Assembly: GCA_963835065.1 (NCBI GenBank)
Contig: CAWIEK010000003.1
Coordinates: forward strand, 96,001-160,000
DNA from: an uncultured Chthonomonadaceae bacterium
Lineage (GTDB): Bacteria; Armatimonadota; Chthonomonadetes; Chthonomonadales; Chthonomonadaceae
Reading direction: 5' to 3'
DNA length: 64,000 bases
Position numbers and translations under genes: made by a program. Of this stretch, positions 604-60,560 are shown one piece after another; position 1 is the first letter of the stretch; every line of letters starts with the position of its first letter. Under the pieces are notes generated by a model. That model was not told where the DNA came from and did no database searches. It was given only the letters and a program-made list of their open reading frames with translations.

Positions 604-3600
604 ATGCCTGATGGTATTGCTGAGGGGGAACCCGATGTGTTCACCCCGCCCCGTTCCTCCTATCCCCGCTGGCTGCGGCGCGGCGCGCTTGGCGTCGGCA
701 GCGTGTTTTTGTGGACGATGGTGCTGTCCGCGCCCCTAGACGCGCTGGCGCACCAGCCGCAGAAGCCGTCTCTGCCCAAGTACCACGCGCCGATCCTGCC
801 CAAACCGGCAGATGATCCCGCGTGGCACACCATTGATTACCACAAGATCGAGAAAGCGCGGCCTGCCGGCAACAGCCTTGCCGCCAAGCGAACGGCGAAT
901 CTGACCCTGCTGGATGACGTGGGGCGACTGGAGCGGACGATTGCTCCGGCGCAGGTGTCGGAATGGAAGCGGCAATTGCACTCCCCGCATCTGCCGTTCG
1001 CGCAAGCCGCGCTGCTGCATCTGCGCGTGGGCGAAACCCTGCTGGCGCAGGACGAGCAGCCGCTTCAAGCCCGCTGGCACTTCGGGCAGGCGCAAAAGCA
1101 GGCTGGAGCGAACAAAGAACTGCGCGGACTGGCCGCGTATGACGATGCGATTGGCGCGTACTACGAGGGCGCATACGCGGAAGCGCAGCAGGCATTCAAA
1201 GCCTTGCTGACCGGTCACAAGGGACTGCGCGGCTTTGACCGCGCCACGTGTACGCTGTTTTGGAAGCATGCAAGCGCGTGCGCCGGGCTATCATGCCGAA
1301 CGCGCCAATATGGGCATCCCCGAACCGCCCAAACTGGATCCCCTGTGCGGCGCGGCGGCAGTGGCGCAAGCCTTGAAGGTGGCGGGCAAGCCGTTCGACA
1401 AGAAGACCGTTCTGGCGCATCTGCGCGTCACGGGCCGGGGCAGCAGCATGCAGGACGTGCTGGACGGGGCGGCGAAGTTAGGGTTGTCGGGGCATGTGGT
1501 GGCGGGAACCGACAAAGCCTTGCTCGCGCTGCCCAAGCCGCTTGTGGCATACGTGGAGCATGACCACTTCATCTCGGTGCTGGATGCCGACAAAGCGGGC
1601 GTGACGTATCTGTGTTCCGACTGCGGCGCATGGCCGGGCGGACGGGTGCATCTCTCCTGGGCGCAGTGGCACAAGCTGGAAGCGACGGCCTTTGCCGCGC
1701 TGACGGAACCCGGCAGTGACGTGGATGGCGCACTGGCCTTGCTGACTCCCCCCAACGAAGCGGCAAAACCGGGCGTACAGATCGCAAGCAGCAGCCCGAA
1801 ACTGGCAAGCGGAGTGGTGGGTCGGATGCGCTGGCTGAAAGTGTTCAAGAAGCAGGGCATCACGCAGCCGATGGGCGGGCAGACGCTTTCCTGTGGCAAC
1901 ACGCCCATCTCGCAGCAGTGTCCCTGTCCCGCCAACTGCCCTGACGACGGCAAGCAGAAGGGCGTGACGCCGGGAAGCGGCAGCGATGGGGGCGGTTCCA
2001 AGAACCCGGCGGGTGGTAATGGCGGCGGGAGTGGGGGCGGCGGCATGGCAGGCGGTGGGCCGACGCAGGGTGTCAGCGTCAATGAAGGCAACGGGCAGAT
2101 GAGCTTCGAGCCGGATCCCCAACTGCCCATCTACAACCCGGTCGGCCCGTCCATCACATTGGGGCTTCACGTATCAGAGTCTGCGCGGCGACACGGGCGG
2201 GCAGGGCTATGAGTCCACCGACTTCGGACAGGGGTTCAGCCATCCCTACAACATCGGCGTGGTCGCGCCCATGACCGCGGCAGGCGGCGGGGGCGGCGGC
2301 GGGCTTGGCGGGGGCGGGGCGAACGCCAAGACAGGCGGCGGGCAGACCAACATCGGCGGCAACCCGCAGCTTCCGCCCGTGACGCTGGTGGAACCCAACG
2401 GTTCGCGGGTGGCGATCACGTACACGCAGCAGCCCACCGCGTCCGTGCCACATGTCGCCTGCACCGTGCCGGCAGGCATCCCGATGCTGGCGGACTGGTA
2501 CTACAACAGCGCGACAGGCGGCACGTACTTCGTGTTCACGCAGCCGGATCGCAGCCAGTGGATGATGCAGGCGGGCTACGACGCGCTGAGTTCTCCCGGC
2601 GTGCAGTCCACGTCCTACTGGTTCCCCCTGAGCCAGATCAAGGACAATGTGGGCAACGGGGTCACGTTCAACTACACCACGCCCACGAGCGGCCACTATC
2701 CGCTGCTGACGAGCATCGTGGACAAGAACAATGTGGCTCTGCTGACCTTCACCCGCGACGGCAACAACGCTGTGCAGCAGGTCAGTGACCGCTATGGCCG
2801 CAGCGTGTACTACCATGTGGGCACGTACCAGAACGCCAACGTTCCCGCCGGGCACACGCAAAGCCTGCTGGAACTCGACCATGCCTCCCAGGTTGTGCCC
2901 ACCGGAACCGCCAATCCGCCCGACCGGTACGTCTGGGCTACCAGAACGTGGGCAACGGCGAAGGCACACAAACCATACCGATGCTCCATACGCTGACCGT
3001 TCCTTCTCCGACAGGCACGGGAACGCAGACGGCGACCATCAACTACCTTGCGGGCGTGAGTACGGTGCAGAGTATTGTGGACGCCAACGGCAACACCCGA
3101 ACGTACAACCAGACGGACGCCAACCACACGCAGGTGAGCGTCACGGACGCGCAGAGCAATGTGGTCTACCGCTACACGGCAGGCTATGACATGAACCTCA
3201 GCGTCACGAGCATCACCAACGGCGCGGTAGACGCGAATGGACACAACAACAAAATCATTGCTGCCATGACCTATGCCGATGCCAACGATCCCTACCGCGC
3301 TTCCGAAGTGCAGGACGCTAATGGCTATGCGAATGGCGGGGCAGGCGGACAAGGCACAAGCAGCAAGACATGGGACGCTTTCGGCAACTGCCTGACGGAA
3401 ACCTCAGCGCGGGGCGTGACAACCACGTACAACCTGAGCTATGCCAATTTCGCGCTTGGCGAAGTTACCAGTGTTCAGGAAGGAACTAAGACGCCGACGA
3501 GTTTCACCTACTATGAGCCAAGCGGCCTCATTCACACCATGACGCCCCCCGCCCCCGGCACAAGCGGGCAAGCCAACCAGATCGTCACGTACAGCTATAC

Positions 3601-6002
3601 GTATGACGCGCTGGGCAACATGCTCACGGCAAGCGGACCCGGCAACAACGCCACCACTGCCAAAACAACCACGTACAACTACACGCAGGATGGTACGTAC
3701 TCGCAAGCCGAAATGCTGCGTAAGCCTCTCACCCTTACTGATAGCTTGGGGCACGTCTCGCACCTGCGTTATGACACGCGCGGCAATGAAACCGCCCTCA
3801 TAGACGCGCTTGGCAACGAAACCGACCTGACGTACAACAACGCCAATCAGCAAACCAGCCTGACCTTTGCCACTACCGGAGAAACGGGAACCGGGCGGGC
3901 GCAGTTGGTGAACACGTTCCTGTATCCGGGCGGGCCGAAAACATCGGTTTTACAGTACAATGAAGCCGGAACACAGGTCTTTCAGGAACAGATGACGTAT
4001 GGCAAGGAAGGCGAGGAACTGACCCGCACGGGCAGTACGCAGCCGGTCAGCCAGGCGTATGACGGTTTGTACCGCCTGAAAACGCTGACCGATGGCAACA
4101 ATCACGCCACGACGTACAGCTATGGGACGAGTGGGTACTTGAGCCAGATCAGCTACCCGAATGGCGATACGCTGCAAGTAACCAGCTATGATCTCAACGG
4201 CAATCCGTTGCAGCGCATAGACGGCAGAGGCGTAGTCACGAACCTGACGTACAATGACGTGGAAAGCCTGCTCACCGACATTCAGTATCCGGCAAGCACA
4301 GGGCTGAACGTGCATGTCAGTTACGATGGCTATGGCAGGAAGACGGGCATTACGGATGGAACGGGCAGTCAAGGCGTCATTGTATGATGACCGTGACAAA
4401 GCCACTTCCGTAACTACCACGTACACGGGATTGGCGGCGCAAACCCTGAGCTATGCCTACTATCCCGATGGAAGCAGGCAAACGCTCACTCTGCCGGACG
4501 CAACAACGTATGCGGATAGCTACGATGCGGTAGGACGGCACACAGGCTTAACCTCACCGGGCGGGCACACGTTCAGTTGGACGTATGCCAACAACAACTG
4601 GCTGACCTCACAAACCTCTGACAACACCATTGTTACGACGCCGACACGCGACGCCAGAGGGACTATCACCGATCTGACGCACCGCCGAACCGACGTAATG
4701 CACACCCTGCTTTCTGACTTCGCGTTGACTTATGCCAGTAACATGACGCTTGGCAGCATGACGAGTACCGTTTCCGGCGTCAGCGCGTTCTCCGGCACAA
4801 CAAACTACGCCCATGATACCAAGCTGCAACTGACACAGGAAAGCAGCAGTCGGGCAGGAGGCTACACCAACAGCAACGCTTATGACGCGGCGGGAAATCC
4901 CACCACGTTCAAAGGCGTCACACAGACGTTCAACAATGCTAACCAGAATACGGCAAGCGCGTATGACGGCAACGGCAACCCGACTGCGTACAAGGGCAAC
5001 ACGCTTGCCTTTGACGTGGAGAACCGCCTGACAAGTTACGGCAGTGTGCTGACAGCCGGGTATCGCGCCGATGGACAGCGGGCGTGGAAGCAGAACAGCA
5101 GTGGCAAGACGTACTTCTTCTACGATGGCGACAAACTGCTGTATGAAACCAACAGCACAGGAACCATAACCGCCAAGAACGTGTGGGGACAAACCGGACT
5201 GCTCGCCCGCAGCACCAGTACGCGAACGTTGCTGTACACATGGGACACTCAGGGCAACGTCAGCCAGCAGCTTGACGCCAATACCGGGAGCGTTGTCGAA
5301 AGCTACATGTTCGACGCTTTCGGAACCCGCGCTACGAACGGCAACGACACGGCGGCAATGGCAGACCCTTACGCAGGCTTCGGCGGAAGCGCAGGCTACT
5401 ACCAAGATGCCGAAACTGGATTGCTGCTCCTCGGATATCGGTATTATGACCCAAGCACGGGAAGGTTCCTCAACCGTGATCCAATACATTACGGTGGTGG
5501 AATCAACCTCTACGAGTACGTGGACAATTCACCCTTCAATGGACACGATTACTCTGGCTTGGAGATGATTCGTGGAGGAGGTGAAGTTCCACCGATCTTC
5601 TCTGTCGCAGAATGTCTCAGCGAACTGGCTAAAATAGTAGGCCAGTTATACCACCATGAGCCTTGCGCTTGGGCAATGATCTGCCAGTTCGTGGCAAACT
5701 GCGTTATCAGTGGCGTCTTAGGAGCCTCAGAAGAGGGATTAAGAGATACCGGGAACTTACTTGGCGCTTGCGCATTAGGCGCTCTGGCAAGTCTCGTTCA
5801 TGACGTGATGGACACAATGTGTAAGGCACTCTTTTGCCACTCCAAAGAACTCCCGCCAATGTTTAACCTCTGCACTGTCCTGGTTAATGGAGCAAGTGGC
5901 TGTGCGTCAGGTATGTTTGGCGGCTGGGCATCTTGGATAGGAACAGGTATCGGAGGCTTTTTGGAAGGTCTCTGTGATAAGCATCCTGGCATTGCCTACT
6001 AG
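604..6002 (+). CDS. Rhs/YD-repeat protein with N-terminal TM/TPR-like region, C39-like cysteine peptidase domain, Rhs core and Cys/Gly-rich C-terminal extension; split by 4 frameshifts (~1287, ~2163, ~2933, ~4372)
   Basis: ORFs 604-1563, 1235-2212, 2259-2996, 2948-4387 and 4314-6002 join by single-base shifts. C39 motifs LCGAAAVA...HDHFISV...YLCSD, YD repeats, and core signature YRYYDPSTGRFLNRDPI..GGINLYEYVDNSP...DYSGL. Confidence 0.9.
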
Positions 6003-6110
6003 GGCCTTGTGCTAGTTAGAATGGCTTCGAGATAGGATTTTCGGGCCGAAAACGCTGATTTTGGCGAAATCGGCCTGAAATGGGATAGGAATCCTAACTA
6101 GCACAAGGCC
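6003..6110. mobile_element. MITE-like element at the Rhs stop codon
   Basis: Perfect 17-bp terminal inverted repeats GGCCTTGTGCTAGTTAG / CTAACTAGCACAAGGCC. TACTA lies one base outside each end (5997-6001, 6112-6116) as a possible TSD. Confidence 0.75.
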
Positions 6111-6240
6111 ATACTAATAGACGAACAACTTAAACACGGTATAATCGAGTGTCTACCAGACAATTGGATATAGGCGTACCAGTCCGATTTTCATAATCTG
6201 GTCGAACACGGAAATATCATGTTTAAGTGAGTTCTCTGTA

Positions 6241-6370
6241 AGTTGATGTTCAGATAAATCTGTTCAGATAGCCAATCTCATGGTATAAGGTTCAAACTTA
6301 CTCGTTGATGAGTTGCTACAATTGAATGGTTGTATCCGACTCATCAATAGATTTTATCTGAACATCAACT
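6241..6370. repeat. Inverted-repeat-bounded element (MITE-like)
   Basis: AGTTGATGTTCAGATAAA ... TTTATCTGAACATCAACT, with an internal TTGATGAGT/ACTCATCAA pair. Confidence 0.7.
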
Positions 6371-6473
6371 ACAAACATCCATACGGAGAAAATTCGTATA
6401 TTCTACATCTTGGCAGATTACGAACTTACTCTACGGGATTGCTTAACGTAGAACTGCGCCTGTAGTAATCGTC

Positions 6474-6606
6474 GTTGCCAGACATTATGGTTTAGAGTAG
6501 CATCTAAAGTAGGCGGTCACAGTTCACTCGTAAATTCTGTGCCTTAGAAAACTACGAATGGATTATGTCCGGTCACTTTGCATACTTTATCATAGTGTCT
6601 GGTAAC
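6474..6606. repeat. Inverted-repeat-bounded element (imperfect TIR)
   Basis: GTTGCCAGACATTATG ... CATAGTGTCTGGTAAC (2 mismatches). Confidence 0.55.
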
Positions 6607-6713
6607 TTCCGTGTAACTGCTCATAAAGTTATCCAAGGCGAAGGTGATAACAATGAGCGTGGCGACAGTTGATGTTCGTCTTAGGATTTCAAGTAAATCT
6701 TTACGGAGGAGAT

Positions 6714-7643
6714 ATGATGTATAAATATTCTAAAATTATGGAACAAGACAAAAGGTTGCAACTGTGGTTGTCTCAAATTCCGCGTTACGTTAAAATGCAG
6801 AGAATTGTTAAATCGTACACAGCCTGCACTTGTTTCATATTTATAGCAATATTGGTAAATAAAATATATGGATTTATCAATTCAGATATAGATAAAACAT
6901 CTATTATAGTATATTTAAACTTGATTATATGCGGGGCAATATTTTCATATATCTATATTTATCTGAGTAGAGGCTGTAAAATTCTCAAAGCCAATAATTA
7001 TGTTGAAGACACACACATGGTCTCTTACCTGTGCGAAGCGTTTGCTCTACACAACTTTACGCAGGGCAGAATAGCAGGTAATCCGTTAGCTGACGCAGTT
7101 TGTTTCGCTCTGCTAAAGTCCTTACCTCACATGCAGACTAGCGATTGGGATGAACTAACTCCACATCAGCGTTCTTGTTTGCACAACATTTTGTACATAG
7201 GCAACAAGACACAAGTAGAACAACTGTATGGAACGCGGTTGATACATGCGGTGCTTTCCACGTTGGAGCGTGTTGGCGATGATGAAACATCCCTGAACCA
7301 TGTTCGAAATGTTGCGGAGCAAACAGAAAATCCCTATTTGCGGCAACTCGCCTTAAATTGTGCAGCAAGTATCCAAACACGAGTGCAGCGCAATGAAGCG
7401 TCCCAATCTTTGTTGCGCCCCTCTAAAGTTGATGTATCACCCAATATGCTATTACGCCCTGCTTCCGGCACAAAGCAGCCATCGTCTACAGCGACGAAAC
7501 AACTATTGCGTTCTTCAACAGGAGGAGCCTCTTGTGCTTCCAATAGGCACGATGCCTTTCTGCCTGACTTTGAACTGCCCGCACCGCAAGAACCATTGCA
7601 GCAAGTGCAGATTGGACAGCAGGCAGAAGAGGACACGCCTTGA
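6714..7643 (+). CDS. Membrane protein (2 TM) with HEAT-like repeat and C-terminal triple LLR motif; candidate Rhs immunity protein
   Basis: GGAGGAG RBS before ATG 6714. AT-rich 5' half and two hydrophobic segments. HEAT-like AVLSTLERVGDDETSLNHVRNVAE, tail SLLRPS..MLLRPAS..QLLRSS. Confidence 0.75.
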   Translation: MMYKYSKIMEQDKRLQLWLSQIPRYVKMQRIVKSYTACTCFIFIAILVNKIYGFINSDIDKTSIIVYLNLIICGAIFSYIYIYLSRGCKILKANNYVEDTHMVSYLCEAFALHNFTQGRIAGNPLADAVCFALLKSLPHMQTSDWDELTPHQRSCLHNILYIGNKTQVEQLYGTRLIHAVLSTLERVGDDETSLNHVRNVAEQTENPYLRQLALNCAASIQTRVQRNEASQSLLRPSKVDVSPNMLLRPASGTKQPSSTATKQLLRSSTGGASCASNRHDAFLPDFELPAPQEPLQQVQIGQQAEEDTP

Positions 7644-7666
7644 CACCAGTTGACACGGGAGGAAAC

Positions 7667-8186
7667 CTGCTGACGAGCATCGTGGACAAGAACAATGTGG
7701 CGCTGCTGACCTTCACCCGCGACGGCAACAACGCTGTGCAGCAGGTCAGTGACCGCTATGGCCGCAGCGTGTACTACCATGTGGGCGTCTACCAGAACGC
7801 CAATGTTCCCGCCGGTCACACGCAAAGCCTGCTGGAACTCGACCATGCCTCCCAGGTTGTGCCGACGGGAACCACGAACCCGCCCGACCGGTACGTGCTG
7901 GGGTATCAGAACGTGGGCAACGGCGAAGGCACACAAACTATCCCGATGCTGCACACGCTGACGGTTCCTTCTCCGACAGGCGCGGGAACGCAGACGGCCA
8001 CCATCAACTACCTGGCAGGCGTGAGTACGGTGCAGAGTATTGTAGACGCCAATGGCAACACCCGCACATACAACCAGACAGACGCCAACCACACGCAGGT
8101 CAGCGTCACGGATGCGCAGAGCAATGTGGTCTACCGCTACACGGCAGGCTATGACATGAACCTCAGCGTGACGAGCCTCACCAACG
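7667..8186 (+). pseudogene. Duplicated internal fragment of the Rhs gene (copy of ~2703-3221)
   Basis: Near-identical DNA and peptide (LLTSIVDKNNVALL...DMNLSVTS). No own RBS; truncated at both ends. Confidence 0.9.
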
Positions 8187-8267
8187 CAAGAAGCAACAAT
8201 CAAGTTACTCCTTGATGTTTGAACGCTACTTTATATGGTCGTTATTGACAATCGGTAAGGTAAATCG

Positions 8268-44446: not shown

Positions 44447-45616
44447 CTAAACGTTGACAGGGAGGACTGTAGCAGAAACAGCCTGCAACTGACACTCAGA
44501 TGCAGGAAGTTTTGTGTTGATCAGGCGACCATGTGGTGGCGCTTCCAAAAGGTTTGGCACAGATATTTGTCCATTGCTGAGGCGGACAAGGCAAAAACAC
44601 TCTTGCGGTTTTCGGATAGCATGAGAAAGCAGTGTCATGCCGCGAGGCGGCAAGCCGGACAGTCTTTGTGGAGTCCTGTTTATTCGATCAGGAGGAGTAT
44701 AGCGAATTGCTAATGATTGTGGGGGCAGATTACCGAGATCGTATGTTGAAAAGGGAATAAAGCTTATCGGCTGATTGTGGTACTTGACACGTCCGCTTTC
44801 GTACTCTGTCAGGAAGCCGAATACAGCATCTCCTTGTACGTTCGCATACAATCTAACGGCTCCATCAGGCAGAGCAATATTGAGGTCTACTCGCGTGATT
44901 GCTGCATCAGGCCAAAGAACAATATCATAGGCAGAGTTTGCATCATCTTCGATTCCATACGAGGGCGGAGTGGCATGAGCCAGCGAATGTGCCATTGCCC
45001 ATCCTTCCTGCATACGAATGTCGGACATTGTCATGCGATACAAGCGGCATAATCGGATGAAATCTTGGAGATTGCGGGGCTTAATCACAAGGAGTATCGA
45101 CATCAAAGCGGCTTCCGCTGTAAGATGTGTAAGTCTGCCGAATTCATGCGAGGGCCGTTGAATGACATTACATCGGCGGCATCGAAAAGCAATATTCTCA
45201 ATGGTATCTGCATCAAGCGGGTCCAGGAAACTTTCGCGCGCTTGAATATGGTCCGCCTGAAGTTCAAGACGAGTGCCGCAATCAGCACATTGGCTGGTTT
45301 GCTGATACATCCACTCCATCACAATTCTCATAGTGCTCCCCTTACCGTAATTGCGTTGGAAGCCTTTTGAGGAGGCTAAACTTGTGCCAACCTGAGAGGG
45401 GTTTAAGTGTCCCAACACTAATGCTGCCACTTCCTTCCACGAAAAGAACTTGGAGGCAACTAAGCTGCTGAGTAGATCAAGCCATTGCTGATCATCCCAG
45501 GTTTGGTCTTGCAATCCAAATGCGGCAGGCGTGGACATTGGCGCTGAAATATTGTGAGGAGTAGATTCGCCCGGCTGATGGTCTGCTATTACGTCCATAT
45601 CTACATCGTTATTCAT
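44447..45616 (-). CDS. HNH (Cys4 Zn) endonuclease, putative restriction enzyme
   Basis: CADC..LQADH...CRRCN, in an AT-richer island. Confidence 0.75.
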   Translation of the reverse strand: MNNDVDMDVIADHQPGESTPHNISAPMSTPAAFGLQDQTWDDQQWLDLLSSLVASKFFSWKEVAALVLGHLNPSQVGTSLASSKGFQRNYGKGSTMRIVMEWMYQQTSQCADCGTRLELQADHIQARESFLDPLDADTIENIAFRCRRCNVIQRPSHEFGRLTHLTAEAALMSILLVIKPRNLQDFIRLCRLYRMTMSDIRMQEGWAMAHSLAHATPPSYGIEDDANSAYDIVLWPDAAITRVDLNIALPDGAVRLYANVQGDAVFGFLTEYESGRVKYHNQPISFIPFSTYDLGNLPPQSLAIRYTPPDRINRTPQRLSGLPPRGMTLLSHAIRKPQECFCLVRLSNGQISVPNLLEAPPHGRLINTKLPASECQLQAVSATVLPVNV

Positions 45617-45882
45617 GATAAACCTCTGCGGTTCAGTTCTTGCTCAAAAGAGGCCACAAAGCATTGAAAATCCAGTCCTAATGCCTGGCAAATAGCGCGT
45701 AGTTCAATTACATCCAGGCGGCGTTCGGTCCGCTCGTACTTGCTGATATAGGATTGGTCCACTTCGAGACGGCTGGCAAGTTCCGTTTGCGTTACATCGG
45801 CTTTCTCACGCGCTGCGCGCAGACATTCGATGAGTACAAGGTAGCTCGCAGCGTGTATAGTTTTTGTGCGTCGCTCTATCAT
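45613..45882 (-). CDS. XRE-family HTH regulator (controller-protein position)
   Basis: LRAAREKADVTQTELASRLEVDQSYISKYERTERRLD. ATGA overlap with the HNH gene. Confidence 0.9.
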   Translation of the reverse strand: MIERRTKTIHAASYLVLIECLRAAREKADVTQTELASRLEVDQSYISKYERTERRLDVIELRAICQALGLDFQCFVASFEQELNRRGLS

Positions 45883-45976
45883 CTTGCAAATGGAATACTC
45901 AAAAGGGTATATTTATGCCAAAATAGCATATAGAAGTTTGGAAAGCAAACGTTTTGGCAGGGGGTATGTAATTGTC

Positions 45977-48320
45977 ATGTCGAGGGCTGTCGAACAATTG
46001 GTACAGGAGTTTAGGGAGACGCTCTGCTGTGAGTGGCATCCGCCAATAGATTTATTGGAAGCTGCCGGCGAGATTCTGGCGGGGAAGGAACAGTTGTTGG
46101 TTCAAGGCCAGGCAGAGCGTTGGCACGATCTGCTAACGGCCATCAATTCAAAATTTCATTTGAATCATGAACGATTGCAGCGCCTTCTTGATGGCGCTGC
46201 ACACCTGAAGGTATTTCCCAACTATCATGACAAAGCGAAACTCCTTGAATATCTTGATAGAAGTGACGCAGAAGGTTTTACATGCTGGCTAAAGACGCGA
46301 GATTACAACCCGAAGCTGCGAGAGTATTTCCAGCCCATCAAACGAAGTGAAACTCTTGCCGCTCTGGCCGAACAATTGGAACACGCAACCATCAAGCGTA
46401 GCGATGCTAAAAATTGCGATGTTGCTGAACGCAGAGAGAGCATACTACGGTCGCTTTTCGGCGGATATGTTTTTCATTCTCTGCCATTGCATATACTGCA
46501 TTGTTACTTCAACTCCGAGTGCCGTAAGGAGTACACTCCAAATTTTTACCAGCACCTACAGAAGCACTATCCGAAGGTTCTAAGCAGGAAATGCGCCCTT
46601 GTTTTTGCCGTACTGAATGAAACCTTTACCACAAATCGAGAGAACGCTTCCTGTATAGACAACATATTTGCATTGATTGCCGCGTCCTATGAGCGGCTTT
46701 CTAATCATGGCTATCTCTCTATTCTTATCAAACCATTCTTAAATACGAACGATGGCAAACAATGGGAACTCTTCTCTGATATTGTACTTTATGCGGAAAA
46801 GCATAGAGAAGTACAACTAAAAACGGGGTATTTTCACCCCGAACTTATCGCGCAAACAACGCAGGATTACATCCCGAACCTGAATGTCGCAGACGCTGAG
46901 TTCAAAACGGCCCATGAAGGGTTCTTTTACCGTGACTGTATGGTTCTGCCGCATCGAACCATTGAAAACCAGATTGTAACCACGCAGGAACCAGTTGATC
47001 TCCTGCTTCTTTTTCAGAAGAACGAGCGTGACGAAACCGTCATTCCATGTCCAGCCTGTCGTTCTCTTTCGGTGCGAGGGAATTCGTACCCTGCACTTGG
47101 AATCCGCAGTTGGGAATGTCAAAACCCCATCTGCCCGGAGCGCAGCGCATTTGATCGCGGCAACCGATACTCGTTAGAAGCGTTGATAAAGCAGGAAGCA
47201 ATCAACTGTGAGAACAATCAGATTCCAGAAGCAAGCCTGAAGAAGTGGAAATTGGATGTTGTTTCGGTGAGCGGCGAATTAGAGGTTGCTGAAATGCTTC
47301 TTCGGCATTTCAGCCTACATAATGATACGGCAGCGTTCATCAACTTTCCAAATATTTGGGTCTAATGTACTCGGTCGCCATGTCCTCTATGAGAGTTTGT
47401 CTTCCACGGCTGAAGCGACTGGCATCTACACTCGTTTCCAACAATCGTGTCTGTTTCGTCGCTTTCTCATAGATCGTAAGCCTTTGGAGAAACCACTGAT
47501 AAATGAATACGACTGTGGCCTGCCTGGCGTCCGTGTTTTTCAAGGAGACTGCTTTGAGGCGCTGTGTAAACTTGACAGGAATTCTTTTGACGGCGCGGTT
47601 ACATCCCCACCGTACTACAACGCCCGCAGCTACTCCACATGGCCGAACATTTACTGCTACCTCTATGATATGTACAACATAGGCAAACAGGTCTATGATG
47701 TTCTGAAACCCGGCGCGCTCTGGCTGTTCAACATCTTCGATTATTTCGATAATGAGAACATTGTCGCTTTGTCTGCAATGGGCAAGAAAAGAATGATTCT
47801 CGGCGCTTACATAATTAACCTTTTCAGACGCATCGGTTTCGAAATAGAGGGCAATACGGTATGGTTTAAGGGTGAAGTGGAAGGCAAGAGGAACTTCAAT
47901 CAAGGAAATCATTCGCCTTATTACCAGCTGCCTCTTAATGCGTGGGAGCATATCTTCATTTTCCGCAAGCCAGGTACTGCTGCTACGCGCTACTCCTTTC
48001 CTCGTATCTTAGCAACAAAGCCTGTGATTAAGATGAAGGGCGGCAAGAATGTTTTGGGACATACAGCGCCCTTCCCATCCAGCATCCCTGATTTACTGCT
48101 AAGTCAGTTGGAAGCGGGAAGGGCTGTTCTTGATCCTTTTTCCGGCAGCATGACAACCGGGCGGGCTGCTCACAAACGTAACATTCAATCTACATCTTTG
48201 GAACTTCATTCGGATTACTGTAAACTCGGCATTAATCTACTACGAGCCGAAAATGGGATGCCGACACTGTATACTCCCACGCATCCTTTTGGCGGCTTAT
48301 TTGATGAGCCATCAGAGTAG
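45977..48320 (+). CDS. Large N4-C/N6-A DNA methyltransferase (beta class) with Zn-ribbon; frameshift ~47360
   Basis: TSPPYY before VLDPFSGSMTTG, HTAPFP, CPAC...WECQNPIC. Confidence 0.85.
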
Positions 48321-51985: not shown

Positions 51986-53354
51986 ATGTCTTCTCAGCAC
52001 CCTGAAAGCCTGTTTGGGACAGAAGAAACAACCCCATCTGTTTCTGTTCCCGACGTTGATCCCAATGCGCCGCTTGCTGCCCGGATGCGCCCGCGTACTC
52101 TGGATGAGTTTGCCGGGCAGGAGGGCGTTGTCGGGCCGGGAACGGGACTGCGCCGCGCCATTGAAAACGATCAGCTTACGTCCGTTTTGCTGTGGGGACC
52201 GCCCGGAACCGGCAAATCCACGCTGGCCGAAATTATTGCCCGCACGACCCGCGCCCATTTTGAAAAACTCAATTCGACAACCAGCGGCGTGGCCGATGTG
52301 CGCAAAGTGATCGAAGCCGCCCGTGAGCGTCGGCGCAAATTGAAGCGCAAAACCATTCTCTTTGTGGATGAGATCCACCGCTGGAACAAGGCGCAGCAGG
52401 ACGCGCTGCTGCCGCATGTCGAGGATGGAACCGTTGTGCTGATCGGCGCGACAACCGAGAACCCGTACTTTGAAGTGAACGCGCCCCTGCTGTCCCGTTC
52501 GCGCCTGTTCCGTTTCGAGCGCCTGTCCGAAGAAGCGGTACAACAACTGCTAATTCGCGCCCTGGCCGATGGGGAACGGGGGCTGGGAGAATTGCATATC
52601 CACGCCGATGCCGACGCGCTGGCGTTTCTGGCGCAGATTTCGGGCGGGGATGCGCGGCGGGCGTTGAGCGCGCTGGATTCCGCCGCGCAGTCCCTGACGC
52701 CGGATGCTGAAGGCACAGCGGCATTTGACGCTGGCATTGGCGGAAGAAGGGGCGCAGGCGCGTTCCGTGTCTTATGACCGGGATGGCGACGAGCATTACG
52801 ATACGGTATCCGCCTTCATCAAGTCCATGCGCGGCTCCGACCCCGATGGGGCGCTATACTGGCTCGCCAAAATGCTTCTAGCGGGCGAGGACATCAAGTT
52901 TATCGCGCGCCGACTGGTGATACTTGCCAGTGAAGATGTGGGCAACGCCGACCCCCTTGCGCTTGTCGTGGCGAACGCAGCCGTGCAAACCGTGATGTTC
53001 GTCGGCATGCCCGAAGCGCAATTAACGCTGTCGCAGGCCGTCACCTATCTTGCATGCGCGCCCAAGAGCAACGCCGCCACCCTTGCTATCGGGCGAGCCA
53101 TGGAAACTATCAAGACGCAGGGCGCGCTTCCCGTTCCCATCCACCTGCGCGACAGCCACTATCCCGGCGCAAAACGCCTGGGGCACGGCGACGGCTACCT
53201 GTACCCCCATGATTTCCCCAACCACCACGTCGCGCAGCAATACCTTCCTGCCGGCGTGATCGGAACCCCCTTCTACGAACCAACCGAGCAAGGGCAGGAA
53301 GCAGCCATCAAAGCGCTTATGGAACGCAAAAGAGACGTTTCGGAACCCGAATAA
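51986..53354 (+). CDS. rarA: Replication-associated recombination protein A (frameshift ~52720)
   Basis: PLAARMRPRTLDE, GPPGTGKS, DEIHRWNKAQQD, SAFIKSMRGSDPD, SEDVGNADP. Confidence 0.93.
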
Positions 53355-53528
53355 AGCCCGCGAAAGGCACAAGCCGCAAGTTTGCACAGTCCGATTTGCG
53401 ATAAGATTCCGCGCCGGTTCTTTGCTGATATGTGGACTGCTGTGATATACTAATCCTATAATTTTTGTGTCGGAGGCTAGACTCATGGCTGTTGTAGAGA
53501 TTGAACCGAAAATTTTTTCTGTGGACCA

Positions 53529-55520
53529 ATGATGAGACTACTGGAAAGCGGGCTGGCGCAGGCGAAAGCGTGGTATGCGGCGCAGGCGCTCAGTTCGGAC
53601 AGCGAAGCAGAGCGAAAGCGAGCCATGCAGACGCTGCGCGAATTAGGCGCGGCCAGCCTGCCGTCCCTCCACGCCACCATTCGCCGCACGGGAGCGCCCC
53701 GCGCCCAATTCAGCGCGGCGGTGGTGCTGCACTGGCTTGGCAATCCCCTGGGGATCAGCGTTCTCCTGGACGGCTTGAAGTGGCAGTTGCCTTCCGAGCC
53801 TCAACTGGCGCGCGACCTTGAAGCCTGCTTTATTCAAATCGGCTCGCCGGACGCGCCCGCCGCCCTCATTCCCGTGTGGAAGCAATTGCTGACGACCAAA
53901 GACAACAAGCGCGTCCGCAAAACCATTTGCCGCGTTTGGGCCGCCTGCAAAGACCCCCGCGTACTGACGGTTCTGGCCGATACCGCGCTGGAACACGCGG
54001 AATTGTTCGAGGAAACCGTTCCCAAATTCGGCGAGGCCGCGCTGGATATGCTGGCGCAAATGCTCCTTGATCCCCTGCCCGCAAAACGCAGCCTTGCCGT
54101 CCGTACCGCGCGCCATATTCCTTCGCCGGATACCACAATGCTGCTGTTCCCCCTGCTGCGCGACCCCGACCACAGCGTTCGCGCCCTGATTCCGCACACG
54201 CTGGTGGGATTGGGGCGGCAGTACACCGGCAATCTGGACATTTACACCCCTATGCTGAACGCCCTGGAAGCCGGGTACAGCACGCCGCAGGCGATTGCCA
54301 TTCTGCTGAACCGTTTTCCGCTTCCTTACGATGCTCTGCTCCGCCTGGTACTGCGCTGGAATGGACAGCAGGAATCATCGGGAGATACGCTGGAAGCGGT
54401 TTTGACGGCACTGCCCGCGCTGGGCAACATGCCCCTGTACAGCATGGGCGCGCGCAGTGAACTCCAACAGCAGCTTTGCGGCGTACTTGCCCGCCGTCCC
54501 GAACCCGCCCTGATCGTCGGCATTGCGCGCATTCTCGCCATGCACGGACGCGGGCCGGAATACACCGGCGCGCAGACACGGACGGTTTTGCTTTCCCTGC
54601 TGCCGCACCCGGACGCCGAAGTTCGCATCCAGATGGGACACACGCTTGCCGTTTTTGAGGATCAGGTCGGCAAACAGATGCAGCAATTGGTGGAAGCGGC
54701 CTGGCCGCAGCCCAACCTGCGCGGCAAATTTCAATCCCTCCTGCGTGGTGGTTCTGATGCCACACAGGTCGCCAATCAGGCAATGCAGTGGTTCACAAAA
54801 TTCTCCAAAGACACGATGGAGCGCTGGAACGCCCCTCACTCCGGCAACGGCGACTCGCCTGTCCCGGTCCATGACCCGCGCTGTCCCGATCTGATACGGC
54901 AACTGCTGGACAATTCCCTGTCCGCGCTCCATGCCGGCGCGGGCGATCAGGCCGAAACCACGCGAGACCTGGCGATTGCCTGCATCCGCGCGCTTGTCCG
55001 CATGGACGCTCCCATTGCCCGAACCGCGCGCAGTCAGTTTGTTCGCGCCCTGCTTTCGGCTACCCTGCCGGTCAAACTTGCGCCTGCCAATGCCTATGGA
55101 CACGGCGAGCCTCAGCTTCAGGATGGCAGTGACGATGTGCGCCTTGCGGCAGGGCAGGCGCTGTTGTCCCTTTACGGCGCGGATAGTTTTCCCCTGTTCG
55201 TCGAGGCGATACACGCGCCCCAACTTGCTGTCCGACTGACGGGAATCGCGTTTTTGGGCGAGCTTGGCGAAGTGCGCGGTTTGTCCCTGCTGCAAGCCCT
55301 GGCCGCGCAAAACGATTTACTGGTATCCCCGGCAGCAAGCGCCGCGATTGCCCGCATCCGCCAGCGCAACCCGGAAACCATGACCCTGCTGCGCGCGTCC
55401 ACCCTAAGCGACGGGCGGCCCGAAACCCTGCTGCGCCCGGCTTTGGGGAACATCGCGCCCACGCCGCCCGACTTACTGCTGCGTCCCGCTGAACACCCCG
55501 CGCCATCTTCCCAAACATAA
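53529..55520 (+). CDS. HEAT-repeat protein with C-terminal triple LLR motif
   Basis: Several PBS-lyase/HEAT-like repeats. Tail TLLRAS..TLLRPA..LLLRPA. Confidence 0.8.
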   Translation: MMRLLESGLAQAKAWYAAQALSSDSEAERKRAMQTLRELGAASLPSLHATIRRTGAPRAQFSAAVVLHWLGNPLGISVLLDGLKWQLPSEPQLARDLEACFIQIGSPDAPAALIPVWKQLLTTKDNKRVRKTICRVWAACKDPRVLTVLADTALEHAELFEETVPKFGEAALDMLAQMLLDPLPAKRSLAVRTARHIPSPDTTMLLFPLLRDPDHSVRALIPHTLVGLGRQYTGNLDIYTPMLNALEAGYSTPQAIAILLNRFPLPYDALLRLVLRWNGQQESSGDTLEAVLTALPALGNMPLYSMGARSELQQQLCGVLARRPEPALIVGIARILAMHGRGPEYTGAQTRTVLLSLLPHPDAEVRIQMGHTLAVFEDQVGKQMQQLVEAAWPQPNLRGKFQSLLRGGSDATQVANQAMQWFTKFSKDTMERWNAPHSGNGDSPVPVHDPRCPDLIRQLLDNSLSALHAGAGDQAETTRDLAIACIRALVRMDAPIARTARSQFVRALLSATLPVKLAPANAYGHGEPQLQDGSDDVRLAAGQALLSLYGADSFPLFVEAIHAPQLAVRLTGIAFLGELGEVRGLSLLQALAAQNDLLVSPAASAAIARIRQRNPETMTLLRASTLSDGRPETLLRPALGNIAPTPPDLLLRPAEHPAPSSQT

Positions 55521-55547
55521 ACAGGCTATAAGGAAGCCGCAAAATCT

Positions 55548-56552
55548 ATGTTGCCGTCCCGTTTTCAACATGCCGCGCCCAATTCCCTGCGTTCCCGCTT
55601 CCACGCCTGCCGCCTGCGCGTTCAGAACGGCTGGCAGTGGCGGCGGCAAATCGCGCATCTTGGCAGCGCAAACCACGCTGAGTACGCAAGCGCGGCGGAA
55701 TGGCTGTTGGCGCGGCACGAACCGGCGCGGCCTCAACTGCACCGCGCGCTCAGAGCGGCTTCCCCGGTTGCCTGCGGCGCGGCAGGGGTATTGCATCAGC
55801 TTGGCGATTCGCAGGGGGTGCGCTATATATTGCTGCGCGCCTATCAGGATGAGTGGTTTACCCACTATCCCGCACAGGACATTTCGGCGTCAGCGCATCA
55901 TCTCGAACAGCGCATCGGAGCAGAGCCAATACGGCAGGTGATATGGCAGGCGCTTGAAGACGCTTGCTACGCTCCCAACGCGCAAGCCTGCCTGCAAACC
56001 CTGACGATTGCCCTGAGCGGGCTGCGCGCCCTGAACGTAATCGCTTCCCATTCTGAAGCGCCTTCCAATAGCAAGAACGACACTTCCTTCTGGATGCAGG
56101 CATTTCTTTTTGGGACTGCCCAATTGCCTCCTTACAAGCAGGCGATCACCTCCATGCCCCTGCTTGCCAACATGACCGGCTGGATTCGCGCCGAAGCCAT
56201 GCGCGGACTATTGCGCGAACATTCTGCGGATATATGCCTGCCAGTTTTCTCGGACGCGCTGCAAGCGGAGGATCAATCCGTCGTCCGCAGCGCCATTATC
56301 GCGCTGCAATGCCTGGGGAATCCCCGCGCTGTTCCCGCGCTGGAAACCCTTGCGTTCACAACCGGGCATCCGCTTTCCCTGCCGGCCCGCCGCGCCATCG
56401 AGCGCCTTGCCGGGACACAAGCCGAAGTTCTCACGCTGGTACGCGCCTCCCGCGAAGACGTAGAAGCCGAAGAACTGCTCCGAGCCGCCCATCCCACGCG
56501 CCCCGAAGCGGCGGAAGGGGAACGGGAAACGCTGCTGCATGTGAGGCATTAG
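55548..56552 (+). CDS. HEAT-repeat protein with C-terminal triple LLR motif
   Basis: VVRSAIIALQCLGNPRAVPAL. Tail TLVRAS..ELLRAA..TLLHV. Confidence 0.8.
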   Translation: MLPSRFQHAAPNSLRSRFHACRLRVQNGWQWRRQIAHLGSANHAEYASAAEWLLARHEPARPQLHRALRAASPVACGAAGVLHQLGDSQGVRYILLRAYQDEWFTHYPAQDISASAHHLEQRIGAEPIRQVIWQALEDACYAPNAQACLQTLTIALSGLRALNVIASHSEAPSNSKNDTSFWMQAFLFGTAQLPPYKQAITSMPLLANMTGWIRAEAMRGLLREHSADICLPVFSDALQAEDQSVVRSAIIALQCLGNPRAVPALETLAFTTGHPLSLPARRAIERLAGTQAEVLTLVRASREDVEAEELLRAAHPTRPEAAEGERETLLHVRH

Positions 56553-56634
56553 GCATCAGGCATTAGATACAAGAGAGAAGAGAGAAGACAGAAGGTACTT
56601 GTTCCTAATGCCTGATGCCTAATGCCTGATGCCT
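56545..56634. repeat. Inverted heptamer array (GGCAT[T/C]A)
   Basis: ggcattaggcatcaggcattag ... cctaatgcctgatgcctaatgcctgatgcc. Confidence 0.85.
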
Positions 56635-56651
56635 ACTCAGGAGGTGCTTTT

Positions 56652-57701
56652 CTGCGCGAACTTGTAGAAGATACAATGGATTGGCTGACGGCGCGCTGCG
56701 GCCTGCCGGTTATGGAGCGGGGGCCGCGCCATCTGCGGGCGGCGGTTCGCCATCTGGACAGCCCAAATAATGCCCGCCGCTTGCGCGCCGAAACGGAATT
56801 GCAGGCGGCGCTTCCCGGTCATGCCCGCTCCCTGCTGCATCGCGCGGCGCGTTCCGGGGGGCGCAGCCGCGCCATCCGCGCAACCTTGCTGCTGACGCAA
56901 ATGCAGGATCGGCAGGGGCGCGAACTGCTGCACCAGTTGATACAGGAACCAGGGCTGCGGCAGGGAGAACAGGGCGAAAACTTGCGCCATGCCGCCCGAT
57001 TATTGCTCACGCCCGAACGCTACGCGCAGCAGGCGCGGGGCGCGCTGGCCCTGTTGGAACAGCGCCCGGAAAGCTGCCGGGCGATTGCGCTGTTTCGGCA
57101 GGCGACCGAAATACTGCGCTTCATGCGCGCGCCACTGCCCTCGGACATTTTGGATCGCGCGCTCGTCGTTCGCACGGTCGGGGGCGAAAACCTGAGCATG
57201 GCGCGGGCTGCCCTGCGCGGAACCCTGGGCGTAGACGTGGAGCATATCTGCCTGATTCGCAAGGAGGCCGTTCTGATGCTTCTCCACGCGCCCGACCATT
57301 CTTATGCCCTGAAACGCCTGCTGCGCGCCGCCGCGTATCCCAACCCTGCCGTGCAGTTGACCGCTCTGTTCGGACTGGCGGAACTCAACGATCCGCGCGG
57401 CGTTGACGTTGCGCTGCCTATCGCGCAGGATGATTCCAGTCCCATTCAGGAGGATGCGCGGGAAGTTTTGGCGCGGCTGAACCGACTCGCCTCCGCCCCG
57501 CTCACGCTCCTCCGGGCTTCCGAGCGGCAGCCGGAACCCGCAAAGGAACTGCTGCGCTCCACGCGCCCCTTTTCAGATGATTACGACGCCCTGTTGCGCT
57601 CCTCTCCTCATTTGCAGACGCCGGGTAAACCGAATGAAGGTAGGAATCAACAGAAAACAGGCGCAAACAGCCCTGAACAGCAGCAAATCAACGGCAACTG
57701 A
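56652..57701 (+). CDS. HEAT-repeat protein with C-terminal triple LLR motif (probable CTG start; next ATG 56676)
   Basis: AGGAGG 7 nt before CTG. VQLTALFGLAELNDPRG. Tail TLLRAS..ELLRST..ALLRSS. Confidence 0.78.
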   Translation: MRELVEDTMDWLTARCGLPVMERGPRHLRAAVRHLDSPNNARRLRAETELQAALPGHARSLLHRAARSGGRSRAIRATLLLTQMQDRQGRELLHQLIQEPGLRQGEQGENLRHAARLLLTPERYAQQARGALALLEQRPESCRAIALFRQATEILRFMRAPLPSDILDRALVVRTVGGENLSMARAALRGTLGVDVEHICLIRKEAVLMLLHAPDHSYALKRLLRAAAYPNPAVQLTALFGLAELNDPRGVDVALPIAQDDSSPIQEDAREVLARLNRLASAPLTLLRASERQPEPAKELLRSTRPFSDDYDALLRSSPHLQTPGKPNEGRNQQKTGANSPEQQQINGN

Positions 57702-57745
57702 AAATCAAGCAGGAAATTGAGGAACGCAGGAGCAAATAACCTTTC

Positions 57746-58705
57746 ATGCTTTCGGACACTTTTGGACGCTATTATTCCCTGTACCGAGTTCACCGCGCCA
57801 TTCGCCTGCTCAACGACCCGCGCCTTCCCCTGCGCGCGGACGCGAAAGAGCAGCTGCGGAGCGCGCGTTCGCTGAGCGTGAAACCTTTGCGGCAGGTCGC
57901 CTTTCGACAGCGCTCCCTGCTCGCCATCCATGCGGCGGAACTGCTCATCGAAATGGACGACGCGCAGGGATTGTACGCCCTGCTTGCGCAATACTCCGAC
58001 CGCTATCTGGCATCGTGGCATGGGCAGCATCTGCGCATGATTTTGGGGCGCGTGGGCAGCGAGCGGATTCTGCGCGTTCTGGAAGCCTCCCTGGACTGGA
58101 TGGAAACTTCGCCCCTGCTGCGCGAACACTGGTGTCTGTCGCTGTCCGTGTATGCCCTTCATGCGCTCGAAGCCCTGCGCGCCCGCGTCCCTTTTTCGCT
58201 GTGGCGGCGCGCGCTGTCCGCGTACTCGCCGGGTTTTGAGGATTTGCGCGCGTGCCGCGCAGTGGTTTCCATGAATGAGATTCTGGGCAGTTCCGCATCC
58301 GCGCATGACGACAACTGGCGCGTCGGTTCCACGCTTGCCGCCGTGCGCCGGGTTGCCATAGACGCCCTGCTCACCTTAGACCGCGCCCATGCGTTCGACC
58401 TGCTGCGCGACGCGCTGGCCCACTCTGCCCCGGAAGTGCAATTAACCGCGCTGTACGGCCTGGCGCACCTGCGCGACCCGCGCGCTTACGTGCTGCTTCA
58501 ACCTATCGCCGCGGATCGCCGCCATCCCCTGGCGCGGGATGCCCGCCGCGTCATCGAATCTTTCGGTTCGCGCCAGCCGGACGCGCTGACCCTGGTTCGC
58601 GCCGCCGCGCCGCAGGAAATCCGTCCGAACGAACTCTTGCGTCCCACCACGCCCGTAACCGACGCCGACCCGGATACGCTGCTAAGAGTAGTCAGTAGTC
58701 AGTAG
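57746..58705 (+). CDS. HEAT-repeat protein with C-terminal triple LLR motif
   Basis: VQLTALYGLAHLRDPRA. Tail TLVRAA..ELLRPT..TLLRVV. Confidence 0.8.
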   Translation: MLSDTFGRYYSLYRVHRAIRLLNDPRLPLRADAKEQLRSARSLSVKPLRQVAFRQRSLLAIHAAELLIEMDDAQGLYALLAQYSDRYLASWHGQHLRMILGRVGSERILRVLEASLDWMETSPLLREHWCLSLSVYALHALEALRARVPFSLWRRALSAYSPGFEDLRACRAVVSMNEILGSSASAHDDNWRVGSTLAAVRRVAIDALLTLDRAHAFDLLRDALAHSAPEVQLTALYGLAHLRDPRAYVLLQPIAADRRHPLARDARRVIESFGSRQPDALTLVRAAAPQEIRPNELLRPTTPVTDADPDTLLRVVSSQ

Positions 58706-58806
58706 TCAGTAGAGGAACGCGCTCTGAAATTTTATACTGCGCCGCGCCTCTCAGGTAAACAGGCATTTACTGACTACTGACTACTGACTACTGACTACTG
58801 ACTACT
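58688..58806. repeat. Inverted heptamer array (GTAGTCA) supplying the upstream stop codon
   Basis: gtagtca x3 ... tgactac x5. Confidence 0.9.
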
Positions 58807-58820
58807 TCAAGGAGACTGAT

Positions 58821-59630
58821 TTGCCCTACCCTTTGTGCGCGATTGATATGGACGATACCCTGCTCGATCCGAACCACGAGATTACGCCCCTGAGCGCGGA
58901 GGCAATACAGAAAACGCGCGCATTGGGTGTGACCGTCGTTGTCGCGTCGGGACGGATGCATGCGGCCACGCGGCGCTATACGCAGCAGTTGCAACTGGAT
59001 ACGCCCGTGATTTCCTACAATGGCGCGATGGTGAAGAATGCGGCAACCGGGGAAGTGTGGCTGGAAGAACACGTTGAGGCTGATTTAGCCGCCGAGATAC
59101 GGCAGTTTGCGCGGGAAAACGATCTACAGCTGAACTACTATCTGCGCGACATTTTGTATTCTGCCGCGCAAACGCAATGGCTTGACCTGTATCAATCCCG
59201 AACCGGAGCGCCCATCGAAATTTTGCCGGATTTTGAAACCCGCTTGCAGGGCACGACGCCGACAAAACTCGTGTTCGTGGACTCGCCCGAACGAATTGCC
59301 GGATTGCTCAAGCCGATGCAGGAACGTTTCGGGCAGAAGTCTTACGTGACGCGCAGCAACGACGAATACCTGGAATTCATGCCGCCCAACGCGGACAAGG
59401 GCAAGGCGCTGGCATTGGTGGCCTCGAAATTGGGCGTCACCGCCGCGCAGACAGTCGCTTTTGGGGATAGCTGGAACGACATTCCCATGTTAAAGTGGGC
59501 CGGCAAAAGCTGCGCGGTCGCCAATGCCAAACCTGAAGTGCGCAGCATCGCGGGGGAAACCATCGGCAGCAACAAGGAAGACGGCGTAGCCCACGCCCTC
59601 GCCGCCATCTACGGCTTCACCCTATCCTAA
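58821..59630 (+). CDS. Cof-type HAD-IIB hydrolase
   Basis: AIDMDDTLL, ASGR, YNGA, DKG, FGDSWNDIPM. Confidence 0.92.
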   Translation: MPYPLCAIDMDDTLLDPNHEITPLSAEAIQKTRALGVTVVVASGRMHAATRRYTQQLQLDTPVISYNGAMVKNAATGEVWLEEHVEADLAAEIRQFARENDLQLNYYLRDILYSAAQTQWLDLYQSRTGAPIEILPDFETRLQGTTPTKLVFVDSPERIAGLLKPMQERFGQKSYVTRSNDEYLEFMPPNADKGKALALVASKLGVTAAQTVAFGDSWNDIPMLKWAGKSCAVANAKPEVRSIAGETIGSNKEDGVAHALAAIYGFTLS

Positions 59631-59729: not shown

Positions 59730-60560
59730 ATGTCACTATTGAAGCCGTTGGACGGCAGTAAGAAAGTACAGTTGAAGGATATAGACCCCGCTGATACGGG
59801 CGGGTTGGGGAAGGAAGACGGCAAAAAACACGCCGCAGAACTGCTGAACGAACTCAGCGAACTGCAAACCCTGCTGTATGCCGCGCAGGAAACGCCCTTG
59901 CTGATCGTGCTGCAAGGCATGGACACGGCGGGCAAGGATGGCGCGATACGCAGCCTGTCCATTGCGATGAACCCGCAAAGCTGCCGCGTGGCGACGTTCA
60001 AAGTGCCCACGCCCTCCGAATCCGCGCACGATTTTTTGTGGCGCGTCCATGCCGAAACGCCCGGTAAGGGAAGCGTGACGATCTTCAACCGCTCCCATTA
60101 CGAGGATGTGCTTGTCGTGCGCGTTCATAACCTGGTTCCCAAAAGCGCCTGGGAGAAACGCTACGATGACATCAACAACTTCGAGCGCCTGCTGACCGAC
60201 AACGGCGCGATTATTCGCAAGTTCTTCCTGCACATCAGCAAGGACGAGCAGGAACAACGCCTGCTGGCCCGCGAACAGGACCCGACGAAATCCTGGAAAC
60301 TGTCCACCTCGGATTGGAAAGAGCGCGAACTGTGGGACAACTATCAGGAAGCGTATAAGGATGCGCTGAACCGCTGCGCCACGCCGGATGCGCCCTGGTA
60401 CGTGGTTCCCGCTAACCACAAGTGGTTCCGGGATGTGGCGATTGCCGAATGTCTCGTGGAAACCCTGCGCCCCCTGCGCGACAGCTGGATGAAAGCGCTC
60501 AAAGCGCGGGGCGCGGAGGAATTACAGCAATTGCGCGCGATGCGCCAACAGCACTCCTGA
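59730..60560 (+). CDS. ppk2: PPK2-family polyphosphate kinase
   Basis: LQGMDTAGKDG, HDFLWR, FNRSHYEDV, PWYVVPANHKW. Confidence 0.93.
   Translation: MSLLKPLDGSKKVQLKDIDPADTGGLGKEDGKKHAAELLNELSELQTLLYAAQETPLLIVLQGMDTAGKDGAIRSLSIAMNPQSCRVATFKVPTPSESAHDFLWRVHAETPGKGSVTIFNRSHYEDVLVVRVHNLVPKSAWEKRYDDINNFERLLTDNGAIIRKFFLHISKDEQEQRLLAREQDPTKSWKLSTSDWKERELWDNYQEAYKDALNRCATPDAPWYVVPANHKWFRDVAIAECLVETLRPLRDSWMKALKARGAEELQQLRAMRQQHS

Follow-up and report, generated by a model that had tools for sequence, protein, structure and literature searches.

The window analysed here, a 64,000-nucleotide stretch of DNA from an uncultured Chthonomonadaceae bacterium (contig CAWIEK010000003.1, positions 96,001 to 160,000), encodes four tandem HEAT-repeat proteins and one separate protein that share a tail of three short LLR units at or near their C-termini. 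This tail represents a motif family that is spread across the order and has not been described before, although its functional kind is known, and it probably serves as a binding motif for a shared partner. A more tentative proposal is that the three copies dock dozens of proteins by avidity onto one ring-shaped partner, for which an AAA+ ATPase is the likeliest candidate.

The LLR tail and its carriers

Four tandem HEAT proteins with a triple LLR tail had been predicted; their coordinates and units were confirmed, and all four pass the cut-off of HEAT_2 (PF13646). The genes lie on the forward strand with intergenic gaps of 27-69 bases and encode soluble proteins of 663 amino acids (aa; 53529..55520, identified by open reading frame (ORF) call, HEAT_2 and orthologue search), 334 aa (55548..56552), 359 aa (56622..57701, with a possible start at 56676) and 319 aa (57746..58705). 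Their HEAT_2 scores are 84.4, 29.0, 37.4 and 29.9 bits, the Pfam gathering cut-off being 27.7 bits. The three units of the 663-aa protein occupy residues 620-622, 634-636 and 650-652 (55386..55484), and the tails of the others lie at about 56406-56549 (third unit LLH), 57480-57617 and 58565-58702, respectively. The 319-aa protein is 27-31% identical to the 334-aa and 359-aa proteins each, and on sequence grounds the three shorter proteins are distant paralogues. A single sigma-70-like site (53433-53462) precedes the cluster and is no better than shuffled sequence gives. For 53500-58800, no RNA holder is on record.

The fifth protein (309 aa, 6714..7643, forward strand, between Rhs fragments) consists of a transmembrane (TM) hairpin, helical repeats and a triple tail at about 7380-7532; two TM helices are predicted, the Pfam search gave no HEAT match, and the protein aligns with the HEAT-helix class. 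All five ORFs contain three L[LV][RH] units. The exact pattern proposed in the original prediction fits four of them, the second spacer of the 334-aa protein being 15 residues long, one over the proposed range. Of the five proteins, all originally said to end with a final HEAT repeat followed by the tail, the four tandem ones pass the HEAT_2 cut-off and the 309-aa protein falls below it. Nor is the tail always terminal, as two of the five proteins continue beyond it for another 33 and 43 residues.

The unit consensus is [P/A/E]-[E/D/Q]-[T/Q/V]-L-L-R-[A/P]-[S/A/V], repeated at a near-fixed spacing of 14-15 residues: unit 1 and unit 2 are 13-15 residues apart in 53 of 60 tails, and unit 2 and unit 3 are 14-16 residues apart in 58 of 60. 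The Arg is nearly invariant and often followed by Pro, an x-Ser often follows unit 1 and is not kept in units 2-3, and the spacers are rich in P, E, Q, T, S and A and poor in aromatic residues. The exact pattern matched 17 of 44,984 six-frame ORFs and none when the same ORFs were reversed; an iterated hidden Markov model of the tail converged on 68 ORFs of the genome, again with none among reversed ORFs. This count of 68 is slightly high, including three near-duplicate pairs and a few short ORFs resembling frameshift fragments, the assembly containing indels. Judged by these sequence counts, the tail is not due to chance. A TM segment is predicted in 47 of the 68 ORFs, bearing out the claim that soluble and TM members both occur.

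Members form tandem arrays, 19 of the 61 called members having another member beside them. Among the neighbours of the 61, no recurring partner was found except ankyrin and oxidoreductase families, which are large anyway. Single-unit look-alikes on IspE and on a YsnF-like protein were discarded, as they are not conserved in relatives. At G000:C60:21897-36955 (genome, contig and positions), a cluster of kinase, PP2C-like, vWA, FHA and coiled-coil genes, named by eye, converges on a tail gene. Also, near-identical gene blocks lie on separate contigs of genome G000 (C26/C62, C28/C53, C27/C29, C36/C57 and C57/C58), probably reflecting redundant assembly or a strain mixture.

The tail occurs on four different carrier bodies, across which, to judge from the sequences, it is modular. 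Class A comprises small two-TM proteins without a HEAT helix (15 by inspection, together with two other HEAT-free TM bodies), class B combines a TM hairpin with a HEAT solenoid, and class C consists of HEAT proteins that are soluble, among them those of the window's tandem cluster. By inspection, 17 of the 68 members are thus TM proteins with no HEAT-type helix ahead of the tail, which does not need to be preceded by a HEAT repeat. A conserved HEAT carrier with two units also exists.

The fourth body is a protein of 92-108 aa (G000:C60:17802-18128) with a single C-terminal xxLLR[PAG] unit. It is predicted to adopt an Sm/Hfq fold (Foldseek E 3.6e-4 to Caulobacter Hfq), its neighbours in the Atlas being Hfq and Hfq_1, and it matched no Pfam family in the G022 copy and no NCBIfam family in the G000 copy, neither Hfq nor Hfq_1 being recovered. 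The unit is kept in all 30 orthologues that were aligned, these being the top 30 matches, in 21 of 21 loci of a second search, whose genomes partly overlap the first set, and, in the sister family, in nine genes at 7 loci, one further paralogue being without it. Outside the order, it is present in 0 of 11 detected homologues (12 loci, from 12 of 28 such genomes retrieved), indicating that the motif was added to the Hfq-fold protein in the tail-bearing lineage. The gene was not found in tail-negative genomes, nor in 11 of 50 tail-positive genomes, one of them 99% complete in 5 contigs; its syntenic site is empty in G282, G247, G127 and G319. Its absence from tail-positive genomes suggests that the Hfq-fold protein is a client and not the receptor. 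Usually directly downstream lies a gene for a receiver-like protein with a basic disordered N-terminus (G000:C60:18125-18805). Detected in 47 of the order's 68 genomes, it was rejected as a tail-linked factor, its distribution not tracking the tail.

Range, conservation and predicted structure

The range of the tail was assessed with a profile built from 37 tails (37 of the 42 in the retrieved loci), up to 17 candidates being scored per genome. Chthonomonadales is an order of soil and hot-spring bacteria, and 50 of its 54 genomes contain the tail; within the family, all 31 other genomes gave a match, as did 18 of 21 sister-family genomes, and the single genome of a third family gave none. In the four tail-negative order genomes (92-99% complete), the class B profile picked up nothing beyond HEAT matches of a generic kind. 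Two of 347 other Armatimonadota genomes were matched, both matches containing internal stop codons; these are therefore considered spurious, leaving no true match in the 347. The profile also matches 3,318 clusters at 50% identity, and in the best 150 of these the tail is present in 149 and lies within 40 residues of the C-terminus in 148. As far as these profile matches indicate, the tail is restricted within Armatimonadota to Chthonomonadales, the source taxa of most of the clusters being unassigned. No tblastn match was obtained among 50,697 phage records.

A search with the 663-aa protein gave matches in 30 of the family's 41 other genomes, each with a single gene wherever it is assembled, and in 0 of 24 sister-family genomes. 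Across 26 full-length orthologues that are 25-71% identical (4 of the 30 loci were left out as incomplete), all nine LLR residues are invariant, and the three triplets make up 9 of the 25 invariant alignment columns. In the body of the protein, 7 of 93 Leu and 4 of 43 Arg are invariant, and mean conservation is 1.00 in the LLR columns, 0.48 in the body and 0.36 in the spacers. The codons at the L, L and R positions vary, indicating that selection acts on the protein, and they follow genome usage, which excludes a DNA repeat. The tandem arrays and the three near-duplicate pairs could have pointed to a neutral by-product of recent duplication, or to a translated DNA repeat. This explanation is refuted by the codon usage and by the invariance of the motif among diverged orthologues, and the motif spans two families. 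The tail is thus neither confined to recent paralogues nor conserved at background level only, and it corresponds to no described domain of the family libraries searched.

An AlphaFold model built with 67 sequences shows the HEAT core as a confident solenoid (predicted local distance difference test, pLDDT, mostly 80-98), whose final 30-residue helix passes through unit 1, units 2-3 being coil with a pLDDT of about 57. In the model of the Hfq-fold protein, the unit lies outside the core, also at about 57. On this prediction, the tail looks more like a linear motif than like a domain with a fold of its own. A fold search with the HEAT-plus-tail model gave generic alphaRep/armadillo matches, none at E<=0.001, and an Atlas search with the last HEAT repeat and tail returned generic HEAT clusters. 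In 32 TM hairpins, the mean number of K+R per 15 residues is 3.2 before the hairpin, 0.7 in the loop and 2.8 after it, so that both ends and the tail are predicted to be cytoplasmic. This topology, together with the occurrence of the tail on the Hfq-fold protein, makes an export machine, one of the partners originally envisaged, unlikely. Being order-restricted, invariant among orthologues, modular and predicted to be disordered, the tail agrees with its original description as a lineage-specific multivalent short linear motif on varied carriers.

The proposed shared partner and rival explanations

Under the docking proposal, each LLR unit would bind one site of a repeating partner; monomeric carriers would need three units, and in the presumably ring-forming Hfq-fold carrier a single unit on each subunit would do. 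In the manner of an adaptor, differing clients would be captured by the TM hairpins and HEAT solenoids, which are variable, and a common machine would be brought in by the tail. Short tail motifs that bind AAA-tethered domains by avidity provide a precedent (excerpts of PMC9477494), and that the shared partner is an AAA+ ring is a reasonable, if insecure, possibility. The best lead, ahead of the UBact-proteasome ATPase, is a 452-aa protein with tetratricopeptide repeats (TPRs) and a single Cdc48/Vps4-like AAA domain (TPR-AAA, G000:C57:147431-148789), although it is doubtful that this very protein is the partner. This single-copy, order-wide protein is encoded by 62 of 68 order genomes, among them 49 of the 50 with tails. 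A search of 5 genomes from five other families did not find it in any, and two tail-negative genomes, G109 and G254, lack it. Its TPR region holds a conserved hydrophobic insert, and in one genus its gene adjoins clpX. More speculatively, diversifying hairpin and HEAT adaptors might recruit the lineage-specific TPR-AAA through a triple-LLR code as a p97/Vps4-like adaptor network, in which membrane and RNA-binding clients would be extracted or remodelled and perhaps fed to the UBact proteasome.

Several points weigh against docking on such a ring. The TPR-AAA is intact in two of the four tail-negative order genomes (G163 and G136), it was not detected in tail-positive G282 (91% complete), and no tail gene was found near it in 20 loci. 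About ten partner candidates were screened by hand and 5 outside genomes were tested, and the order-level match may reflect shared ancestry only; with a hand-picked screen over related genomes, the match is a lead and not support for binding. Also, ring formation by the Hfq-fold carrier is presumed from its fold, the hexamer being an assumption, and the low pLDDT of the tail is no proof of disorder.

Other partners were rejected on their distribution. ClpX is attractive because its adaptor motif is LKxh-like (excerpts of PMC7226468), a consensus that LR[AP][SAV] fits loosely, the match being too short for significance. However, four near-complete tail-positive genomes (G172, G099, G062 and G207; 96-100% complete) yielded no clpX with the zinc-binding domain, which argues against ClpX as shared partner, just as the lack of any BMC domain in the two tail-positive genomes tested (G022 and G099) argues against a BMC shell; an AAA+ adaptor and a shell were among the partner types suggested originally. 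The zinc-binding domain of ClpX has a lineage-wide altered sequence in the order, with a second short copy in some genomes. HslU, PspA, Band_7 and ARC also occur in tail-negative genomes and hence do not discriminate.

Instead of a ring, the tail might bind a polymer or lattice at the inner membrane, such as a PspA/Vipp1-type ESCRT-III, some other coat or the scaffold of a condensate, and in this way connect membrane members with soluble ones. The fixed unit spacing would suit a lattice, most carriers are membrane hairpins, PspA occurs in 66 of 68 order genomes, and an analogy exists with the pyrenoid Rubisco-binding motif (excerpts of PMC7673724). Yet PspA is present in 4 of 5 order genomes without any tail-type match, no tail gene was found beside pspA in 20 loci, Band_7 proteins are weak in G022 besides occurring in tail-negative genomes, and the missing BMC domains count here as well, so that a lattice is considered unlikely. 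Among the ATP synthase genes, at G000:C3:217650-219983, lies a gene that joins a PspA-like coiled coil to an oxidoreductase-like domain, and similar PspA-like frames of 700-880 aa were noted in many family genomes. Docking on the UBact-proteasome ATPase (ARC), with the carriers as tag-independent adaptors or substrates, is improbable. A complete locus encoding ARC, Dop-like, UBact, beta, alpha and PafA-like proteins is present (G000:C49:30215-41576), ARC occurs in 45 of 45 good order genomes, clpX being missing from some genera, and three N-terminal coiled coils per ARC hexamer are described (excerpts of PMC8755798). In addition, the immediate neighbour of ARC in 6 of 30 loci is a HEAT gene with two LLR units, which in G000 and G405 lies about 1.7 kb off; this neighbour is, however, confined to a subclade and absent from 14 further loci, and ARC is equally present in tail-negative genomes. 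When compared with the unit profile, UBact itself reaches -3.5, which is the median for small proteins (rank 300 of 600), and Pup binds as a 30-residue helix, which the proline-rich units cannot form. A complex prediction with two copies of the ARC N-terminal domains and the tail scored 0.00 and weighs neither way.

The three units could also fold together or zip between molecules, as a mini-domain or by homotypic oligomerisation with no separate receptor, given that six leucines at fixed spacing could build a small core and that unit 1 caps the last long helix of the model. This seems rather improbable, as AlphaFold leaves units 2-3 unstructured, the spacers are variable and proline-rich, and one- and two-unit forms are conserved. 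Alternatively, an enzyme might modify or cleave the tail at the LLR, for instance by phosphorylating the arginine, which would lead to ClpC, or by processing the chain behind it; the nearly invariant Arg and the x-Ser after unit 1 would accord with this. The Ser missing from units 2-3 and the frequent Pro after Arg speak against it, and none of 42 genomes of the window's family, the richest in tails, yielded an arginine kinase of the McsB type; the idea is accordingly quite improbable, and McsB was rejected as partner, being missing from tail-positive genomes. The kinase occurs in 24 of 26 genomes of the order's two other families. Sm-type domains can bind leucine-rich motifs, and the Hfq-fold protein, which has the same motif and was not found in tail-negative genomes, could itself be the receptor, with its own unit autoinhibitory. 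Its absence from tail-positive genomes and the empty syntenic sites described above make this very improbable and argue against an Hfq-like ring as receptor.

Genomic surroundings and comparison with known systems

Downstream of the tandem cluster, on the forward strand, lie genes for a Cof-type HAD hydrolase (58821..59630, conserved in 20 of 60 overlapping loci) and a PPK2 polyphosphate kinase (59730..60560, 16 of 60), which probably reflect synteny only. The separate tail gene lies inside a fragmented Rhs-type locus (about 1270-8215) in a lower-GC stretch; besides an orphan repeat piece, the locus has a C-terminal extension that is hydrophobic and contains Cys. A role in Rhs immunity was set aside, only 2 of 61 members being near Rhs genes. 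Upstream of the cluster, a frameshift splits rarA/mgsA into two overlapping ORFs (51986-53354), as frameshifts split clpP and clpX on G000:C34, suggesting assembly indels and not real breaks. A low-GC island with HNH-like and DNA-methyltransferase-like ORFs, named by eye, lies at 44447-48320.

No Pfam model matched the 37 tails better than E 0.05, and NCBIfam and PADLOC gave just weak HEAT-type and stray matches, no model covering the tail, in agreement with the original statement that no named domain is known for it. Of 24 proteins compared with PADLOC defence components, 5 gave short HEAT matches of a generic sort and none matched a component over its full length, and sequence searches of the PDB gave chance matches only. 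No description of the tail was found in the literature covered, which did not extend to subscription papers and supplements; excerpts of PMC4959169 do not mention it, and those of PMC7203096 gave no help.

In a bacterial genome of 8 Mb, about 1% of the genes bear this one motif, which also labels thousands of sequence clusters and constitutes a marker for the order. The identity of its partner would assign a common pathway to many 'hypothetical' proteins in a little-studied phylum that has a cultured member, and a 45-residue avidity tag could serve as an orthogonal recruitment or degradation tag. If true, the adaptor network with TPR-AAA would amount to a system like endoplasmic-reticulum-associated degradation in a bacterium.

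The soluble and TM-plus-HEAT carriers have the same solenoid body as PBS-lyase-type HEAT proteins (PF13646; NblB, CpcE/F). However, they score 21-31 bits against an NCBIfam cut-off of 300 for NblB, the NblB, CpcE and CpcF equivalogs giving only weak E-values among 67 class members, and these models do not cover the tail. The one-unit carrier has the Sm fold of Hfq and Hfq_1, its LLR tail being found only inside the order. Sorting signals of the PEP-CTERM, MYXO-CTERM and LPXTG type consist of a motif, a TM helix and a basic C-terminal cluster; a C-terminal sorting signal was rejected here, the tails being hydrophilic and rich in P and E and matching no such NCBIfam model. A UBact/Pup-type tag was likewise rejected, given the median score of UBact and the lack in the tails of the G-E/Q terminus of the tag.

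SspB has an Sm-like fold, and a small Sm-fold protein with a short adaptor-type tail motif is a likeness to the one-unit carrier. In SspB and RssB, a Leu-basic-x-hydrophobic motif binds the zinc-binding domain of ClpX, tethering adaptors to the AAA+ ring (excerpts of PMC7226468), whereas here three tandem copies occur on dozens of carriers and clpX is missing from four tail-positive genomes. Short C-terminal tail motifs are also common to the ESCRT-III MIM tails, which bind the MIT domains of Vps4-type AAA proteins, weak sites being summed on a hexameric ATPase with helical peptide-binding N-domains (excerpts of PMC9477494). Unlike those, the carriers here are HEAT and membrane proteins and not ESCRT-III, no sequence match to MIMs was noted, and the candidate ATPase has TPRs in place of MIT and lies far below the CdvC and CDC48 cut-offs. 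The pyrenoid Rubisco-binding motif, which is likewise short and repeated and lies in the disordered parts of unrelated proteins, soluble as well as TM, that all bind one oligomer (excerpts of PMC7673724), differs in sequence and kingdom, and the spacing here is short and fixed and the partner inferred only. The tail belongs to neither the MIM-Vps4 nor the pyrenoid Rubisco-binding system. To our knowledge, most networks in which a short linear motif serves dozens of clients have been described in eukaryotes.

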